The translations under genes were made by a program, and so were the position numbers. A DNA stretch of 38,857 nt, taken from the IMG/VR virus record IMGVR_UViG_2636415906_000002; one strand, 5' to 3'. This DNA is from a virus (lineage: Duplodnaviria > Heunggongvirae > Uroviricota > Caudoviricetes). Position 1 is the first letter of the stretch; every line of letters begins with the position of its first letter. The notes below the pieces were generated by a model that was given only the letters and a program-made list of their open reading frames with translations, made no database searches and was not told the DNA's origin. This document shows positions 13,322 through 38,857 of this stretch, one piece after another.

Positions 13322-15103
13322 ATGAATTTTGATGCAACTCCTTTAAATATTAAAAATATACTTTCTGTTAAACAGCGTTATGTGATTCCACGGAATCAAC
13401 GAGAATTTAGTTGGGAAAAGTTACAACTTGATGAATTGTGGCAAGACATAATAAGAAATATAAAATTAAATCCCAAAGGGGATGACTTTGAATTCAATGA
13501 GTACTTTATTGGTACAATTGTATTGTCTGGTGCTGACAGTGATAATGTTTTGGAGATTGTTGATGGTCAGCAGCGTTTCAGTGTTATTACAATTCTACTT
13601 TCTTTAATTTCTAGGTTTTTAAGAAAAAATGGGAAGGCCGAATTTGCTGATGATATTTTTAAAACATATATCGTAACCGCAAATCAGACGTTCAATAGAA
13701 ATTCTGTCAGTTCTAATGGCGACTCAGTAGTTGAGAAGCTTTCTAAAAATAGTGACAGGGCTTTTTTTAAACTAAAATTCCAAGATAGAGTTGAGCATAA
13801 AGCTGATGTGACTTGCGATGAAGATAAAAAGATTCAATATGCTGGGTTGTATTTAAGTAGAAAGCTAGGAAAGAAAGCATTATGTTCTTCTTTGTTGCGT
13901 GACGGTGCAGTAAAGTATAAAAAGGAAGATTACCTTTTTTGCTTGAATGCCGTTTACAATATGGTTACTAATTATCTTAAATTAGTAAGGATATCAGTAG
14001 GCAAGGAAGATGACGCGTATGATATTTTCGAGGTTTTGAATGCAAGGGGAATAAACTTAAGCTCCCTTGATCTGATTAAAAATAAAGTTTTCCAGAGTTG
14101 TATTGAAACATATCCAATAGATAAAGCCAAAGAGAAATGGGATTATATTACTAATTGCATCGAAGCTAGAGATAGTAACGCTACAATGGTTGATTATGTC
14201 AGGTGTTGGTGGCTTTCTAAGTTTAATTATATAGGTGAAGATCAACTATACCGTGCCTTTAAAAGAGAGATAAATGATGGTGTTTATGGATTAACTGCAA
14301 TTTCATTTTTGGATGAGTTGCATAAAGATGTTGATTTATATTGTAAGATAATTTCTCCAGATATTGATGATTGGCCTCAACAGGATCAGCGAGATATTTA
14401 CAATTCACTTAAAGCATTTGAAATATTCAATGTTTCAATCCCTCGCCCATTCATTTTGTCATTATTAAGAAAAAGAAGAGATAAATCTAGAAGTCTTTCG
14501 CAAAAAAGTTTAATAGAGTGTCTAATGTGTTTAGAGAGATTCCACTTTAGATTTAATGCTATTTGCCGATTAAGACCCTCTGGCATAGACGCCAAGTATT
14601 CAGTATTAGCAGTAAGCCTTGATAAAGCTACTAATAAACGTAGTATCGAATCAACCATTAGTGAAGCAATAGCATACTTTTCTGCGAAAAGTCCAAATGA
14701 AAAAGTATTCAATGAGGCATTTGTTAAAAATTTATTTTATACAAATAAAAAAGCCTCCCAGCGTAAGCTCATAATGTATATTTTTGAACGTTTTGAAAAG
14801 AAATTGCGAGGAACTAATGAGTTAAAATTAGACTTAGTTTCACTCGAGCATATTGGTGCACAAAGTAGTTTTGACTCAGAGGTTGTTGGATTAATGGGGA
14901 ATCTTCTTCCTCTTTGCTTTACTTTGAATGAATCATGTAAAAATGATAGCTTAAGTAAAAAAATAAACGAGTATAAGAAGTCAAACCTTAAGGTGGTTAA
15001 TGAGTTTATTGATGAGTATTCATCTAACGATGAGGAATGGAATGCCCAAAAAGTTCAGATTAGAACATTATCTATGTCAGCGAAGGCCTATAATATAATC
15101 TAA
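13322..15103 (+). CDS. DUF262/DUF1524 two-domain nuclease, GmrSD/BrxU-like type IV restriction-type defence protein
   Basis: 593 aa from ATG 13322; N-terminal DGQQR motif (13562..13576) typical of DUF262 ParB-like NTPase domain; C-terminal LEHIGAQ ... GNLLPL ... NESCKN His-Me finger-like motif (E509/H510 at 14846..14851); AT-rich; own terminators on both sides. Confidence 0.7.
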   Translation: MNFDATPLNIKNILSVKQRYVIPRNQREFSWEKLQLDELWQDIIRNIKLNPKGDDFEFNEYFIGTIVLSGADSDNVLEIVDGQQRFSVITILLSLISRFLRKNGKAEFADDIFKTYIVTANQTFNRNSVSSNGDSVVEKLSKNSDRAFFKLKFQDRVEHKADVTCDEDKKIQYAGLYLSRKLGKKALCSSLLRDGAVKYKKEDYLFCLNAVYNMVTNYLKLVRISVGKEDDAYDIFEVLNARGINLSSLDLIKNKVFQSCIETYPIDKAKEKWDYITNCIEARDSNATMVDYVRCWWLSKFNYIGEDQLYRAFKREINDGVYGLTAISFLDELHKDVDLYCKIISPDIDDWPQQDQRDIYNSLKAFEIFNVSIPRPFILSLLRKRRDKSRSLSQKSLIECLMCLERFHFRFNAICRLRPSGIDAKYSVLAVSLDKATNKRSIESTISEAIAYFSAKSPNEKVFNEAFVKNLFYTNKKASQRKLIMYIFERFEKKLRGTNELKLDLVSLEHIGAQSSFDSEVVGLMGNLLPLCFTLNESCKNDSLSKKINEYKKSNLKVVNEFIDEYSSNDEEWNAQKVQIRTLSMSAKAYNII

Positions 15104-25793: not shown

Positions 25794-26391
25794 TCTGCTG
25801 CCACCGGGTTCAACTTCACTGGAGCGCCGACTGGCGCAAACCTGTAGCGGGATTTCTGATCTGCAGGTGCCGCTGCGTGACTTGTGGAATCCGGCTACCT
25901 GTCCGGTCAGCTTCCTGCCTTATCTCGCCTGGGCGTTCTCTGTGGATCGCTGGGACGAGGGCTGGACAGAAAGCGTCAAGCGCCAGGTGGTGAAGGATGC
26001 TTTTTATATTCATCAGCATAAAGGGACCACCAGTGCCGTGCGGCGGGTGGTGGAGCCGTTCGGATTCCTGATCCGCATTATTGAGTGGTGGCAGACCGGA
26101 GAAACACCGGGCACGTTTCGCCTGGATATCGGCGTGCAGGACCAGGGCATCACTGAAGATACCTATCTGGAACTTGAGCGACTGATAAGCGATGCCAAAC
26201 CATGTAGCCGCCACATGATCGGCATGTCCATCAATCTGCAGACCAGCGGCCCGCATTGGGTGGGAGCCGCCAGCTATCTTGGCGAAGAAATCACGATCTA
26301 TCCGTATATCAACGAAACGATTATTTCCGGTGGCACCGCGCATGAAGGCGGGGCGGTCCATGTTATTGACACAATGAGAGTGAATCCATGA
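25786..26391 (+). CDS. I: baseplate / tail-fibre anchoring protein
   Basis: 201 aa, P2 gpI position. Confidence 0.8.
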   Translation: MNSLLPPGSTSLERRLAQTCSGISDLQVPLRDLWNPATCPVSFLPYLAWAFSVDRWDEGWTESVKRQVVKDAFYIHQHKGTTSAVRRVVEPFGFLIRIIEWWQTGETPGTFRLDIGVQDQGITEDTYLELERLISDAKPCSRHMIGMSINLQTSGPHWVGAASYLGEEITIYPYINETIISGGTAHEGGAVHVIDTMRVNP

Positions 26392-27746
26392 GCACAAAAT
26401 TTTATACCCTGCTGACGGATATTGGCGCGGCGAAACTTGCCAGCGCCGCCGCGCTCGGTGTGCCGCTAAAAATTACCCATATGGCGGTGGGCGATGGCGG
26501 TGGAGTATTGCCAACGCCGGACGCAAAGCAGACGGCACTGGTAAATGAGAAACGCCGGGCTGCGCTGAATATGCTTTATATCGACCCGCAGAACAGCAGC
26601 CAGATTATTGCCGAACAGGTGATCCCTGAAAACGAGGGCGGTTGGTGGATACGTGAAGTGGGCTTGTTTGATGAGTCCGGGGCATTGATTGCCGTGGGCA
26701 ACTGCCCGGAAAGCTATAAGCCGCAACTGGCTGAAGGTAGCGGGCGCACTCAGACCGTGCGCATGGTGCTGATTACCAGCAGCACGGACAATATCACCCT
26801 GAAAATCGACCCTGCTGTAGTGCTGGCAACCCGCAAGTATGTGGATGACAAGGCACTGGAGCTGAAGGTGTACGCGGATGATCAGATGGCAAAACATCTT
26901 GCCGCACCGGACCCGCATTCACAGTACGCGCCAAAAGCCAGCCCGACATTTACCGGAACCCCCAAAGCGCCAACGCCAGCGGCGGGGAATAATACCACGC
27001 AGGTTGCGACCACTGCGTTTGTACAGGCGGCACTGACGGCCCTTATTAATGGTGCGCCAGCCACGCTGGACACGCTGAAAGAAATAGCCGCAGCCATTAA
27101 CAATGATCCGAATTTCAGTACCACCATTAACAATGCGCTGGCACTAAAAGCACCGTTGTCGAGTCCGGCACTCACCGGAACGCCAACAGCCCCCACGGCG
27201 GCGCAGTCGGTCAACAATACACAGATTGCCACTACGGCTTTTGTGAAATCGGCGATTGCAGGAATGGTGGGTTCTGCACCTGCTGCACTGGATACACTGA
27301 ACGAACTGGCGGCGGCACTGGGGAATGATCCGAACTTTGCCACGACAATGCTTAATGCGCTGGCAGGTAAACAACCGCTGGACAATACGCTTACCAATTT
27401 GAGTGGAAAGGATGTAGCTGGTCTTCTCACATACCTTGGTTTAAGAGCAAGCGGGCAGTACACCGATAATTTGTTATTTACAGGTCCTGATGGTCTTAAG
27501 ATTCAGGTGTTTCGCCGGACGCTCGCAAATTTGACTACTGTTGGTGTAGTAAATTCTGTGCCAGTGACTTTCCCTGTCCCGTTCCCTGTTAATTGCTGGG
27601 GCGTTTTTTCTACCAAATTAACATGGGTTCAGATAACTAACTCATGCGAGTGGGTAAGCAATACAGGATTTACCGCTCAGGTCATGATGAATATTGCTGT
27701 AAATACAAACACCTCAGACGCTATGTTTTTAGCTATAGGATATTAA
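26388..27746 (+). CDS. H: tail fibre protein: constant N-region (residues 1..350) + currently expressed variable C-terminus
   Basis: 452 aa; two about 70-aa tail-fibre repeats (26943..27155, 27165..27374); invertase crossover site inside the gene at codon 350. Confidence 0.85.
   Translation: MSTKFYTLLTDIGAAKLASAAALGVPLKITHMAVGDGGGVLPTPDAKQTALVNEKRRAALNMLYIDPQNSSQIIAEQVIPENEGGWWIREVGLFDESGALIAVGNCPESYKPQLAEGSGRTQTVRMVLITSSTDNITLKIDPAVVLATRKYVDDKALELKVYADDQMAKHLAAPDPHSQYAPKASPTFTGTPKAPTPAAGNNTTQVATTAFVQAALTALINGAPATLDTLKEIAAAINNDPNFSTTINNALALKAPLSSPALTGTPTAPTAAQSVNNTQIATTAFVKSAIAGMVGSAPAALDTLNELAAALGNDPNFATTMLNALAGKQPLDNTLTNLSGKDVAGLLTYLGLRASGQYTDNLLFTGPDGLKIQVFRRTLANLTTVGVVNSVPVTFPVPFPVNCWGVFSTKLTWVQITNSCEWVSNTGFTAQVMMNIAVNTNTSDAMFLAIGY
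27424..27449. repeat. invertase crossover site 1 (hix/gix-like): TTCTCACATACC-TT-GGTTTAAGAGCA
   Basis: 26-bp imperfect palindrome inside H; core dinucleotide TT at 27436..27437. Confidence 0.5.
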
Positions 27747-27747
27747 T

Positions 27748-28188
27748 ATGAATCGTTTTGTGTTCAGTCCATCTGAGTCCCGTTTTTATGCCATCGAGTG
27801 GCAGGCTGATTATGTTGATAATAATTGTTGGCCACATGATGCCATTAACGTTAGTGACAGCATTTATTATGAGTTTTCCGGCACTCCCCCTACAGGTAAG
27901 CAACTTATAACTTTAAATAACATGCCAGCATGGGGTGATATTCCTCCACCTACACGAGAAGAATTAATTGTCGCTGCTGATGTGGAGAAGCAAAAAAGAA
28001 TAGATTTAGCCAATGATTACATGAACGGTAAGCAATGGCCTGGTAAAGCAGCTATTGGTCGTCTGAAAGGTGAGGAACTGGCACAATATAATTTGTGGCT
28101 GGATTATCTGGACGCACTGGAGCTGGTCGATACCGCCAGTGCGCCAGATATTGAATGGCCTACGCCTCCGGCAGTTCAGGCCAGATGA
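27748..28188 (+). CDS. G: tail fibre assembly chaperone
   Basis: 146 aa directly after H. Confidence 0.8.
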   Translation: MNRFVFSPSESRFYAIEWQADYVDNNCWPHDAINVSDSIYYEFSGTPPTGKQLITLNNMPAWGDIPPPTREELIVAADVEKQKRIDLANDYMNGKQWPGKAAIGRLKGEELAQYNLWLDYLDALELVDTASAPDIEWPTPPAVQAR

Positions 28189-28762
28189 CATCTGGCGCGG
28201 TGCTGGTATCAGTTGCCGTCACCGCGTCAATGTAATCCAGTACAGCGTTAAGGCTGGTTGTTTCTGCCTGCGTCAGTTTACGTCCGGCCTGCAATTTCAG
28301 CTGAATCAGACTGATTGAAGCCATTGCAGTATCAATCAGTGACTGGCGCTGTGCTTCTGCTGCATCTACTGCGGCGCTATGCTGTGCTTCGGTATCCGTC
28401 ACCCATTTCTCACCATCCCATTTATCGTATGGCGTTAACGGGGCGATAGTGGTTGTATTATCAGGGTAATCACCCGGAGCTGTGATTTCTTTTGATTCTC
28501 CTGTTTCGGTGCTAAAGACGATTTCACCGCGATGGTCTGGCACATATTCCCATGAGTTAAAATCTACAGATCGGCAGATTGCATAACCAGCTTTGTATGT
28601 GCCAGGGGCATCTAAACAGGAATATGCAGGGATACCGACACCAACGGCAAGATATTCAGTTGATGTGGAAATATATTCCCGTGTTTCGCCATCATAGTTA
28701 TAGACGGTAATATTCCCCGCCTTTGTAGCAATAAACTCGCTATTTAATACAGCGTTATCCAT
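28160..28762 (-). CDS. alternative tail fibre assembly chaperone (inverted cassette)
   Basis: 200 aa on minus strand, convergent with G, coupled TAATG to the alternative fibre cassette. Confidence 0.7.
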   Translation of the reverse strand: MDNAVLNSEFIATKAGNITVYNYDGETREYISTSTEYLAVGVGIPAYSCLDAPGTYKAGYAICRSVDFNSWEYVPDHRGEIVFSTETGESKEITAPGDYPDNTTTIAPLTPYDKWDGEKWVTDTEAQHSAAVDAAEAQRQSLIDTAMASISLIQLKLQAGRKLTQAETTSLNAVLDYIDAVTATDTSTAPDVIWPELPEA

Positions 28763-29304
28763 TATGCAGCCCTCACGATATAGTTAAATGCAATATTCCG
28801 TGGACGGGTTTCATTTATCCCATATGCTGTTGTTCTCTGATTCCCGACAAAATATCCATTTGGATTAGAAGATACAGAATAATCATCAAAATCAAGTGGG
28901 CTATCAGCACCCGGCGTCAGGCTTGCAATATATCCTCTTCCCATAACTTCTGATGCTGGTATTTCTTTTGTACGATAATCACTAACTCTGAAGAGCTGCC
29001 CTTGGTGGGTGTGTGATTCCACTCCTCCATTCTGAAGACTTAGCAAGGCACGTACAGCATCAATACCACGCCCGTCATCCCAGCCACGAATAAACTCACC
29101 ACGTAAATCAGGCAATTTATTTGTCGGATAAGCCTTTGCCAGTTCCGGGTATTCTTCAGCAGAAAAAGCGGCACCGTTGCATTTCAGCCAGCCTGTTGGC
29201 GGAGTGGCTGAAGGCCACGGAACAGGCACCCCAACCGGTAATGCAGAGCCTTCTCCCAAACCAACGTTTAAGAAAATGCAGAGGTAACAGCTAACTGGCA
29301 TCAT
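28762..29304 (-). CDS. alternative tail-fibre C-terminal cassette (promoterless; fused to H codons 1..350 only after inversion)
   Basis: minus-strand ORF passing through crossover site 2 in the same codon phase as H at site 1; conserved fibre C-terminal motifs PVGVPVPWP...GW..CNG...YP.L...RGEFIRGWDDGRG. Confidence 0.65.
   Translation of the reverse strand: MMPVSCYLCIFLNVGLGEGSALPVGVPVPWPSATPPTGWLKCNGAAFSAEEYPELAKAYPTNKLPDLRGEFIRGWDDGRGIDAVRALLSLQNGGVESHTHQGQLFRVSDYRTKEIPASEVMGRGYIASLTPGADSPLDFDDYSVSSNPNGYFVGNQRTTAYGINETRPRNIAFNYIVRAA
29251..29276. repeat. invertase crossover site 2 (hix-like): TTCTCCCAAACC-AA-CGTTTAAGAAAA
   Basis: 26-bp imperfect palindrome; core AA is the reverse complement of site-1 core TT, i.e. 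inverted configuration. Confidence 0.5.
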
Positions 29305-29331
29305 CTCCGGTTTTTATTCAGGGGGATGATC

Positions 29332-29898
29332 ATGCTTATTGGCTATGTACGCGTGTCAACAAATGACCAGAACACCGATTTGCAACGCAATGCACTGAAC
29401 TGTGCGGGATGTGAGCGGATTTTTGAGGATAAAATCAGTGGCACCAAGTCCGACAGACCGGGGCTGAAAAAGCTGCTCAGGACACTATCGGCAGGAGACA
29501 CGCTGGTTGTCTGGAAGCTGGACAGACTGGGGCGCAGTATGCGGCATCTTGTTACGCTGATAGAAGAGCTGCGCCAGCGTGGCGTGAATTTCCGAAGCCT
29601 GACTGACAGTATTGATACCAGCACCCCAATGGGCCGTTTCTTTTTTCATGTCATGGGTGCCCTGGCTGAAATGGAACGCGAACTGATAGTTGAACGTACC
29701 AGGGCGGGGCTGGCTGCAGCTCGTGCTAAAGGCAGAGTAGGTGGACGCCGTCCTAAGTTGACCAGCGAACAGTGGTCACAGATTGGGCGTTTACTCGAGG
29801 CCGGAGAATCAAGACAGCGTATTGCACTGATTTTTGATGTAGGCGTTTCTACCATTTATCGAAAATTTCCGGCAAATAAGAACAATAAATCTCCCTGA
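29332..29898 (+). CDS. DNA invertase, Gin/Cin/Pin/Hin-family serine recombinase
   Basis: MLIGYVRVSTNDQNTDLQRNAL...DTLVVWKLDRLGRS...MGRFFFHVMGALAEMERELIVERT - near-identical architecture to Gin/Hin from memory; catalytic Ser in VRVSTNDQ. Confidence 0.9.
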   Translation: MLIGYVRVSTNDQNTDLQRNALNCAGCERIFEDKISGTKSDRPGLKKLLRTLSAGDTLVVWKLDRLGRSMRHLVTLIEELRQRGVNFRSLTDSIDTSTPMGRFFFHVMGALAEMERELIVERTRAGLAAARAKGRVGGRRPKLTSEQWSQIGRLLEAGESRQRIALIFDVGVSTIYRKFPANKNNKSP

Positions 29899-37793: not shown

Positions 37794-37842
37794 TATTTGG
37801 TGGAGCTGGCGGGAGTTGAACCCGCGTCCGAAATTCCTACAT
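37794..37842. repeat. attR: 49-bp direct repeat overlapping the 3-prime end of intact ssrA
   Basis: identical to 4114..4162. Confidence 0.85.
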
Positions 37843-38160
37843 CCTCGGTACTACATGCTTAGTCAGTCTTTACATTCGCTTGCCAGCTGCGGACGGACAC
37901 GCCACTAACAAACTAGCCTGATTAAGTTTTAACGCTTCAACCCCAGGCAGGGCTTCCACGCGATCTCTTTTGGGTTTGACCTCTCTTGATCCCCGTCCTA
38001 AGAGCGGAGGCTAGGGAGAGAGGGCTCTAAGCAGGTTATTAAGCTGCTAAAGCGTAGTTTTCGTCGTTTGCGACTATTTTTTGCGGCTTTTTACGAGGCC
38101 AACCGCCCCTCGGCATGCACCTTGGGTTTCGCAAATCCCGTCGAATCCAGAATCAGCCCC
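37798..38160 (-). ncRNA. ssrA: tmRNA (SsrA), 363 nt
   Basis: reverse complement reads GGGGCUGAUUCUGGAUUCGACGGG ... tag-reading-frame region ... GGGUUCAACUCCCGCCAGCUCCACCA, matching enterobacterial tmRNA from memory. Confidence 0.95.
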
Positions 38161-38374: not shown

Positions 38375-38857
38375 TTAACGGTGGGCGTTTTTCATGATAC
38401 GTGCTTTATCCACCTGCCATTCGCGTTCTTTGATATCTGAACGTTTATCGTGCTGTTTTTTACCTTTGGCGACGCCGATTTTCACTTTGCACCAGGCATT
38501 TTTCCAGTACAGGGAGAGCGCCACTACGGTATAGCCTTCTCGATTGACGCGACCGTACAATGAGTCCAGTTCGCGTTGGTTGAGAAGTAACTTGCGGGTA
38601 CGGGTAGGATCGCACACCACATGCGTGGAGGCCACGGCCATTGGCGTGATGTTAGCGCCAAACAGAAATGCCTCTCCGTCACGCAGAAGGACGTAGCTGT
38701 CGCTGATATTGGCTTTTCCTGCGCGCAGGGATTTAACCTCCCAGCCTTGCAGGGCAAGTCCCGCTTCGAACTCTTCTTCGATAAAGTATTCGTGACGGGC
38801 GCGCTTGTTAAGCGCGATGGTCGCTGAACCAGGTTTATGTGCTTTTTTCTTCGTCAT
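38375..38857 (-). CDS. smpB: SsrA-binding protein SmpB
   Basis: 160-aa [51 protein letters not shown]... essentially the E. coli SmpB sequence; start codon at window end. Confidence 0.95.

Follow-up and report, generated by a model that had tools for sequence, protein, structure and literature searches.

Tail-fibre genes that are switched by Din-type inversion of a DNA segment have long been known from phages Mu and P1 and from the e14 element. In e14 of Escherichia coli K-12, overproduction of the invertase PinE raises inversion of the P segment, and deletion of pinE locks the segment; the repeat sequence is the same as that of the locus described here (PMC12529663). Inversions have also been detected by whole-genome sequencing in P2-like prophages of EPEC (Goldberg et al. 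2014, PMC4272514).

The locus considered here lies in a stretch of phage DNA of 38,857 nucleotides, which was analysed as a whole and is termed the window. It is very probably a Din-type (Hin/Gin/Cin/Pin) switch that has two states and works by site-specific inversion, situated in the tail-fibre operon of a 186/P2-like prophage. The switch is of the classical host-range type, already known and ordinary, and involves no new principle. From its gene content and neighbour, the host element is a complete-looking 186/P2-type prophage of the E. coli chromosome, inserted at ssrA; CI, CII, replication gene A, portal, capsid, V-W-J-I-H, FI, FII and ogr are all present, and the element adjoins ssrA. The Pin module thus resides in a P2/186-type prophage and not in e14. 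The features of the locus are listed below by position in the window.

26388–27746, plus strand: open reading frame of H, with the Pfam domains Phage_tail_fib N (E 4.6e-65) and Gp53-like_C.
26388–27437, plus strand: constant part of H (codons 1–350), outside the invertible segment; annotated 'phage tail protein' in CH4793.
27424–27449, within H: left crossover site, 26 bp, TTCTCACATACC-TT-GGTTTAAGAGCA, core TT at 27436–27437.
27438–27746, plus strand: variable fibre C-terminus currently on H, a Gp53-like_C cassette (PF21882) of ∼102 aa.
27748–28188, plus strand: tail-fibre assembly chaperone of the gene G/Tfa type, partner of the current cassette (Pfam Caudo_TAP, E 1.3e-26).
28160–28762, minus strand: alternative chaperone of the TfaE type, silent in the present orientation (Pfam Caudo_TAP, E 7.2e-33).
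28762–29262, minus strand: alternative fibre C-terminus cassette with a tail-collar domain (Pfam Collar, E 6.5e-16).
29251–29276: right crossover site, 26 bp, TTCTCCCAAACC-AA-CGTTTAAGAAAA, core AA at 29263–29264.
29265–29304, minus strand: fixed short leader (ATG and 13 codons) outside the segment, at the position of the e14 stfE start; open reading frame 28762–29304.
29332–29898, plus strand: Din-family serine invertase of the Pin type, 188 aa (Pfam Resolvase, E 2.4e-53, and HTH_7, E 1.9e-15).
29350–29421, plus strand: probable recombinational (Fis) enhancer, nt 19–90 of the invertase gene.
29353–29367 and 29402–29416: candidate 15-bp Fis cores, in the region equivalent to the P1 enhancer.

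An initial annotation, made from the sequence, had described a pair of 26-bp hix/gix-like sites with reverse-complementary cores TT and AA. Both are read directly in the sequence and are best termed gix/pix-like. In each, a 2-bp core separates 12-bp half-sites in inverted arrangement, and the two cores are inversely oriented. When aligned with known Din sites, a check that the annotation had called for, all four half-sites fit the Din half-site TTCTCNNAAACC of Mu, P1 and e14. A consensus derived solely from the Mu, P1 and K-12 e14 sites (TTMYYNNAAACCNNGGTTTNNRRKAA, at most three mismatches allowed) matches the left and right sites with two mismatches each, where 0.04 matches are expected in shuffled sequences. 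A third, weak match is present at 13600–13625, with three mismatches and TA, a palindrome, as its core. Two pattern searches found no other site of the left or right type in the window. A multi-site shufflon was considered and rejected: shufflons such as p15B Min and the three-repeat EPEC locus have at least three sites and more than two variants, the fibre region here and its surroundings hold just two, and the TA core of the match at 13600–13625 is incompatible with TT/AA. A generic repeat finder lists the two sites as a direct repeat (D6, 79%) and not as an inverted repeat, because each site is nearly palindromic and its polarity comes from the core alone. At position 9 the H-side half-site carries T, in contrast to the A of 13 other Din half-sites; this departure might weaken binding.

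The segment of 1.8 kb was described in the initial annotation as holding two opposed cassettes, each with a fibre C-terminus and a tfa gene, and the open reading frames and Pfam domains agree with this. The product of 27748–28188 is 55% identical to K-12 TfaP over the C-terminal 105 aligned residues, and the gp53-like fibre end shows no significant similarity to K-12 StfP. The StfE-type cassette on the minus strand is 55% identical to K-12 StfE as a whole, with near identity in the first 80 aa. Its leader, MMPVSCYLCIFLNV, aligns with K-12 stfE, MPFACYFFIFINV, and with this ATG and 13 codons the silent cassette has a predicted open reading frame of its own. An equivalent of the leader frame is annotated by PGAP in both orientations.

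The core was said to fall in codon positions 2–3 on both sides, and coordinate arithmetic and in-silico inversion give the same result: TT forms bases 2–3 of codon L350 (CTT) of H, and AA forms bases 2–3 of codon V14 (GTT) of the minus-strand open reading frame 29304–28762. Inversion in silico yields the proposed in-frame fusion, an open protein of 516 aa that reads ...GLLTYLGLGEGSALPVGVPVPWPS.... This predicted fibre is identical over 516 of 516 residues to annotated coding sequences in ZH49 and FDAARGOS_1287, which carry the flipped state; in ZH49 the gp53-like cassette is in turn a minus-strand coding sequence, 'gp53-like domain-containing protein'. All five open reading frames of the locus are intact.

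The gene at 29332–29898 adjoining the segment is, as had been claimed, that of a Gin/Hin-family invertase. The protein has an N-terminal resolvase catalytic domain with the nucleophilic serine and a C-terminal helix-turn-helix, and is 85% identical to PinE of e14, 74% to Gin of Mu and 79% to Cin of P1 (tblastn). Identity to characterised invertases is well above that to resolvases. The structure-sequence match is to Gin 3UJ3 (E 7.7e-93), with 312 bits for Gin versus 121 bits for gamma-delta resolvase. The catalytic serine, Ser9, aligns with Gin position 9 (Ala in the 3UJ3 chain, Ser in 4M6F). The start codon lies 68 bp from the right site, a distance that is the same in e14 and Mu. A promoter/terminator scan detected nothing above background as a promoter for the invertase gene (6 promoter-like sites versus 5.2 expected), and with counts at this level the scan is uninformative on the pin promoter.

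Invertase-specific contacts with Fis and the enhancer have been assigned in Hin to Q151, R154 and L155 and to basic residues 47, 48 and 51 (PMC3798978). Their probable counterparts here are Q150, R153 and L154, invariant among the window protein, PinE and Gin, and the basic residues K46, K47 and R50. This residue correspondence presumes a one-residue numbering offset relative to the Hin sequence.

An enhancer was sought in the 5′ end of the invertase gene, as the initial annotation had suggested. In the P1 record the cin enhancer is annotated at nt 19–90 of cin, and 55 of 72 bases are identical in the window equivalent; the suggestion stands to the extent of this positional homology. A Fis enhancer is probable in the first ∼90 bp of the gene. 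Synonymous codon identity is 0.52 in the enhancer region versus 0.38 downstream in the invertase gene. The Din enhancer consists of two Fis sites ∼47–48 bp apart, in cis; the two G-N13-C candidate cores here are 49 bp apart, and the proximal one is ∼97 bp from the crossover. The heuristic scan for Fis cores does not discriminate, as several 15-mers tie; the pair retained is the one whose positions correspond to the P1 enhancer. The distal candidate core, GTGCGGGATGTGAGC, has a G + C-rich centre, unlike high-affinity Fis sites (PMC4784862).

It had been held against a switch if a single orientation were all that is ever seen. Both orientations are present in near-identical genomes. In the clonal pair ZH48/ZH49, the 9,050-bp loci are identical save for one exact inversion, whose breakpoints fall within 7 bp (TTGGTTT/AAACCAA), the predicted core among them. 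In a second clonal pair, SW071619/SW071611, the loci span 7,096 bp and likewise differ solely by an exact inversion. The flipped construct made in silico is found at full length in other genomes, and in FDAARGOS_1287 the segment is 100% identical and flipped. These genome comparisons show that inversion at the predicted sites happens in nature, and as the clonal pairs differ by an exact inversion alone over 7–9 kb, the events are very recent. Homologous recombination was rejected as the cause of the inversion, as the inverted identity common to the left and right sites is only 7 bp in ZH48/ZH49, far too short for RecA-dependent recombination.

The same data bear on whether the sites and the gene are relics in a copy that no longer inverts, with orientation differences that date from old events or arose when homologous recombination swapped whole cassettes. 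The unusual T in the H-side half-site and the lack of a clear promoter in the scan would fit such a fossil. Against it are the five intact reading frames, the catalytic serine, the recent date of the inversions in both clonal pairs and the 7-bp limit on shared inverted repeats in ZH48/ZH49, and we consider it barely credible. Both flipped clonal pairs themselves carry the half-site with T at position 9. For the exact copy in the window, we infer activity from relatives that are 98.9–100% identical.

The junction of H with the gp53-like cassette is rare (8 genomes) and that with the collar cassette is common (461 genomes), counts that mix many cassette partners and are no measure of switching. 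They proved unusable as a census of orientation, since the 100 bp on the collar side are conserved across many cassette sets and in phages without the partner cassette.

A working model for the switch can be drawn by analogy with the family. Dimers of the 188-aa serine invertase would bind both 26-bp sites and bring them into synapsis. The synapse would most likely form at an enhancer occupied by Fis, within the first ∼90 bp of the invertase gene; dependence on Fis, the enhancer and negative supercoiling is what the family would predict. Both sites would be cut at the central dinucleotide TT/AA, rotated and religated, so that bases 27438–29262 are turned over. The promoter would stay fixed, as would codons 1–350 of H, which would be expressed with whichever cassette faces them. 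After the flip, the end of H would be the 166-aa collar-type cassette in place of the 102-aa gp53-like cassette, and the matching chaperone gene, of the TfaE instead of the G type, would then follow in the sense direction. The flip would swap the tip of the tail fibre and hence probably the bacteria that can be attached to; a consequence for host range is suggested by the precedents of Mu, P1 and carotovoricin. The virions from a lysogen population would be expected to be of two kinds that differ in receptor specificity, a form of host-range bet-hedging.

The switch might instead serve mainly the lysogen. The cassette averted from H, translated from the fixed 14-codon leader, would, as proposed for StfE2 of e14, bind a surface receptor as a free fragment and so hide it from other phages, and inversion would toggle the specificity of superinfection exclusion. 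The right site does lie within the ATG-initiated frame 29304–28762, the leader can be aligned with the start of K-12 stfE, an equivalent frame is annotated in both orientations, and a leader-plus-cassette chimera of e14 is reported to block T2 adsorption (PMC12529663). On the other hand, no promoter or ribosome-binding signal is seen for the leader frame, although the scan counts are at background and uninformative on this point. The prophage looks complete, so that a virion function suffices as an explanation; the cassettes differ from K-12 StfP, the gp53-like end being without significant similarity; and Mu has a similar short read-through with no annotated function of its own. We regard a role mainly in the lysogen as quite improbable. 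Also unlikely, if somewhat less so, is a combination in which exclusion of competing phages by the leader-borne cassette, as claimed for e14 StfE2, is a second output of the lysogen, and the invertases of co-resident prophages also recombine one another's sites. In that case a single flip would change the host range of the virion and the defence of the host together, and a prophage could even be broken in two by a 45-kb inversion between prophages, such as the FDAARGOS_1287 assembly suggests.

The 'recombinase family protein' and the two orphan-looking minus-strand reading frames of this prophage form a single functional unit, and the tail-fibre gene has two products, of 452 and 516 aa. Orientation should therefore be treated as a phase-variable state, and not as strain divergence, in genome comparisons and host-range predictions. 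The importance is modest and at the level of annotation.

Of the described systems, the EPEC E2348/69 P2-like prophage loci and Fels-2 Fin are in the same phage type and at the same position in the fibre operon. Two coexisting variants were detected by whole-genome sequencing in EPEC loci (PMC4272514); one of these loci is a shufflon with three repeats and four variants, whereas the window has two sites. In the P1 C segment, the cixL half GGTTTAAGAGAA is one base off the window half GGTTTAAGAGCA, and Cin and the cin enhancer are related as given above. The P1 invertase gene flanks its segment on the opposite side and has cixL at its 3′ end, which puts the enhancer ∼500 bp from the site. The Mu G segment shares the fusion of constant and variable fibre parts (Sc-Sv/U versus Sv′/U′) and has the gene of its 74% identical invertase directly to the right of the segment, at the same spacing. 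The Mu segment is 3 kb long, its core is GA/TC and its inverted repeats are long and perfect, in contrast to the AA/TT core, 26-bp sites and 7 bp of shared inverted identity here.

The e14 P segment of K-12 differs in residence, being part of a defective element at icd, whereas the window holds an apparently complete myovirus prophage of the 186/P2 type, inserted at ssrA. Its constant part is that of StfP and not a 350-aa N-terminus of the P2 H type, and its StfP end shows no significant similarity to the gp53-like cassette on the plus strand here. The segment measures 1,825 bp here (27438–29262) and a published 1,797 bp in e14. The order of elements is the same in both: fibre N-terminus, site, cassette and tfa, opposed tfaE and cassette, site and pin, with pix-type sites and a TfaE/StfE-type cassette beside pin. 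The right site is identical to that of K-12 e14 in 25 of 26 positions (one base differs), the cores TT/AA are the same, and the published 16-bp inversion repeat of e14, CCTTCTCCCAAACCAA, is contained in it unchanged (PMC12529663). TfaE and the invertase are 91% and 85% identical to their window counterparts, and e14 variants in other strains reach ∼96% DNA identity over 27433–29756.

The tail-fibre segment at 27438–29262 is bounded by two 26-bp crossover sites and adjoins an invertase gene. The initial annotation's description of the sites, core dinucleotides and genes matches the sequence, and the ORF list and Pfam domains agree with it:

26388–27746, plus strand, tail-fibre gene H, 452 aa (Pfam Phage_tail_fib N-terminal domain, Gp53-like_C end)
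27424–27449, left site, TTCTCACATACC-TT-GGTTTAAGAGCA
27748–28188, plus strand, Caudo_TAP chaperone
28160–28762, minus strand, second Caudo_TAP chaperone
28762–29304, minus strand, 180-aa ORF with tail Collar domain
29251–29276, right site, TTCTCCCAAACC-AA-CGTTTAAGAAAA
29332–29898, plus strand, 188-aa Resolvase + HTH_7 protein (invertase)

The core TT of the left site forms bases 2–3 of H codon 350 (CTT, Leu), and in the minus-strand ORF the core AA of the right site forms bases 2–3 of codon 14 (GTT, Val). An in-frame fusion upon inversion had been predicted, and in-silico inversion of 27438–29262 does produce an open 516-aa H, reading ...GLLTYLGLGEGSALPVGVPVPWPS...; the fused protein is identical at 516/516 residues to an annotated CDS in Escherichia coli ZH49 and FDAARGOS_1287. 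At the overlap of the two convergent chaperone genes there is a 33-nt imperfect inverted repeat (28129–28210, 73% complementary), most likely a consequence of similar Tfa C-termini (…DIEWPTPP…, …DVIWPELP…) being encoded on opposite strands and not a terminator.

Both orientations occur in nature. Complete E. coli genomes were searched with the native construct and with a construct flipped in silico. The flipped form is full-length in strain ZH49, and the native form is found at the same chromosomal place in the sister isolate ZH48; their 9,050-bp loci are identical save for one exact inversion, whose breakpoints are locatable only to the 7-bp TTGGTTT/AAACCAA, predicted core included. A second clonal set (SW071619 and SW07163 versus SW071611) likewise differs by an exact inversion, over 7,096 bp; the prophage there is a related one, its H-side half-site unchanged but its partner cassette different. 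In a third pair, Z1323PEC0011 and Z1323PEC0013, the version found in e14, the cryptic prophage of E. coli K-12, appears in opposite orientations, as judged from identical coordinates. The H end and segment of FDAARGOS_1287 are 100% identical to the window, with the segment flipped. RecA-dependent recombination is not credible as the cause, since the inverted identity of only 7 bp is too short for it.

Eight genomes have the H::gp53-like junction and 461 have the H::collar junction, counts that do not measure switching because the collar-side sequence is common to many cassette sets. Among H genes, similarity commonly stops a few bases beyond the left site (query position 118, window 27454), which makes this site a mosaic boundary.

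The four half-sites read, outer to core, TTCTCACATACC, TGCTCTTAAACC, TTCTCCCAAACC and TTTTCTTAAACG; the pattern from Mu, P1 and e14 half-sites is TTCTCNNAAACC. A pattern made from the window's own two sites is circular evidence (2 matches, 0.00 expected). An independent consensus, for which no sites but Mu gix, P1 cixL and those of K-12 e14 were used and up to 3 mismatches were allowed, matches both window sites at 2 mismatches each (0.04 expected in shuffles). A third, weak match inside a DUF262-domain gene (13600–13625, TTCTTTAATTTC-TA-GGTTTTTAAGAA, 3 mismatches, nearly palindromic) is probably due to chance, and its TA core is incompatible with TT/AA. A general repeat finder lists the site pair as a direct repeat (D6) because each site is nearly palindromic and polarity comes from the central dinucleotide only, the behaviour of hix/gix-type sites. 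Position 9 of the H-side half-site TTCTCACATACC (27424–27435) is T, against A in 13 other Din half-sites, those of Mu, P1 and e14 and the remainder of the window's own. This T notwithstanding, two clonal pairs carrying the same half-site have flipped. The crossover lies 68 bp from the invertase start codon, as it does in e14 and Mu.

The invertase belongs, as proposed, to the Gin/Hin family: it is 85% identical to K-12 PinE, 74% to Mu Gin and, by tblastn, 79% to P1 Cin, it has the nucleophilic Ser9, and its similarity to chain 3UJ3 of the Gin crystal structure (E 7.7e-93) far exceeds that to gamma-delta resolvase. A promoter scan for the invertase gene was at background level. Q150, R153, L154, K46, K47 and R50 would correspond to contact residues of Hin if a one-residue numbering offset is assumed. 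In Hin, the invertase-specific contacts to the Fis-bound enhancer are Q151, R154 and L155 together with the basic residues at 47, 48 and 51 (PMC3798978).

A Fis enhancer had been suggested within the 5′ end of the invertase gene, and homology points to a probable, putative one at 29350–29421. This stretch is equivalent to nt 19–90 of cin, annotated in the P1 GenBank record as 'enhancer of Cin-mediated C-segment inversion', and is identical to it at 55/72 positions and to Mu at 53/72. Two candidate Fis cores in a G-N13-C frame are present:

29353–29367, GTGTCAACAAATGAC
29402–29416, GTGCGGGATGTGAGC

They are 49 bp apart centre to centre, the proximal one ~97 bp from the crossover; in Hin, 47 bp separate the Fis sites, ~100 bp from hixL (PMC3798978). 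The distal core has a G+C-rich centre, unlike strong Fis sites (PMC4784862). Among six divergent Din genes, same-amino-acid codons are identical in 52% of pairs over codons 7–30 versus 38% over codons 31–135, and the best 24-codon windows for synonymous identity all begin at codons 2–9. Such raised identity fits a DNA element superimposed on the coding sequence, though 5′ ends are under other constraints as well.

Outside the segment there is a fixed hydrophobic leader of ATG plus 13 codons, MMPVSCYLCIFLNV (29265–29304, minus strand), from which whichever cassette faces the invertase gene gains a predicted ORF of its own. The K-12 stfE start aligns with this leader, and the annotated minus-strand fibre CDS of Mu likewise extends ~30 nt beyond the G-segment boundary. 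A phage-exclusion function has been attributed to the e14 equivalent of the leader ORF (PMC12529663, 2025).

E. coli CH4793 matches the window at 100% identity, and a complete 186/P2-type prophage is annotated in that record, with genes for CI, CII, replication endonuclease, portal, terminase, capsid, lysis, V-W-J-I-H, sheath, tube, tape measure, D and ogr. The invertible module separates H from the sheath gene. One end of the prophage has an integrase; at the other, directly beyond ogr, are ssrA (tmRNA) and smpB (about 37798–38160 and 38375–38857, both minus strand), which places the insertion at the ssrA locus. The DUF262-domain gene (about 13322–15103, plus strand) stands between the replication endonuclease and portal genes, a position that often holds anti-phage cargo in P2-like phages, and is a candidate defence gene.

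The FDAARGOS_1287 assembly (NZ_CP070071.1) has the same prophage split by a ~45-kb inversion; an e14-like prophage also adjoins ssrA there. The junction sites, corresponding to the right site 29251–29276, fall in two stretches of this record, L005 and L007:

L005:8352–8377
L007:5975–6000

Precisely at its core, the right site continues into the stfP-side half-site of a neighbouring e14-like prophage, giving the hybrid TGCTCTTAAACC-AA-GGTTTTCGAGAG; at the reciprocal junction a single fibre segment has an invertase gene on each side, pinE and the P2-type gene. The arrangement points to invertase action across sites of two different prophages; the inversion could also be an assembly choice.

The initial observation is thus confirmed and its interpretation supported: the module is an ordinary Din-type tail-fibre switch, and evidently active. 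Its layout is shared with the Mu G, P1 C and e14 P segments, the last being closest. The K-12 right site is 25/26 identical to that of the window, which contains the 16-bp repeat CCTTCTCCCAAACCAA reported for both ends of the P segment (1,797 bp; PMC12529663), and the cores are the same (TT left, AA right). Window TfaE is 91% identical to K-12 TfaE, the collar cassette matches stfE almost exactly over the first 80 residues and at the end but diverges in the middle, and the plus-strand chaperone shares 55% identity with TfaP across the 105 C-terminal residues that align; K-12 StfP and the gp53-like cassette have no significant similarity. Variants of e14 in other strains reach ~96% DNA identity over 27433–29756. 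Among the P2-like phages of the phage collection, many have such a module annotated 'DNA invertase', e.g. Cartapus, 500465-1, pro483 and Klebsiella KP12. Coexisting orientations have been found by sequencing in P2-like prophages of EPEC (PMC4272514), and e14 inversion has been measured under PinE, PinQ and PinR (PMC12529663); the switch is therefore of an already known kind, this phage group included.
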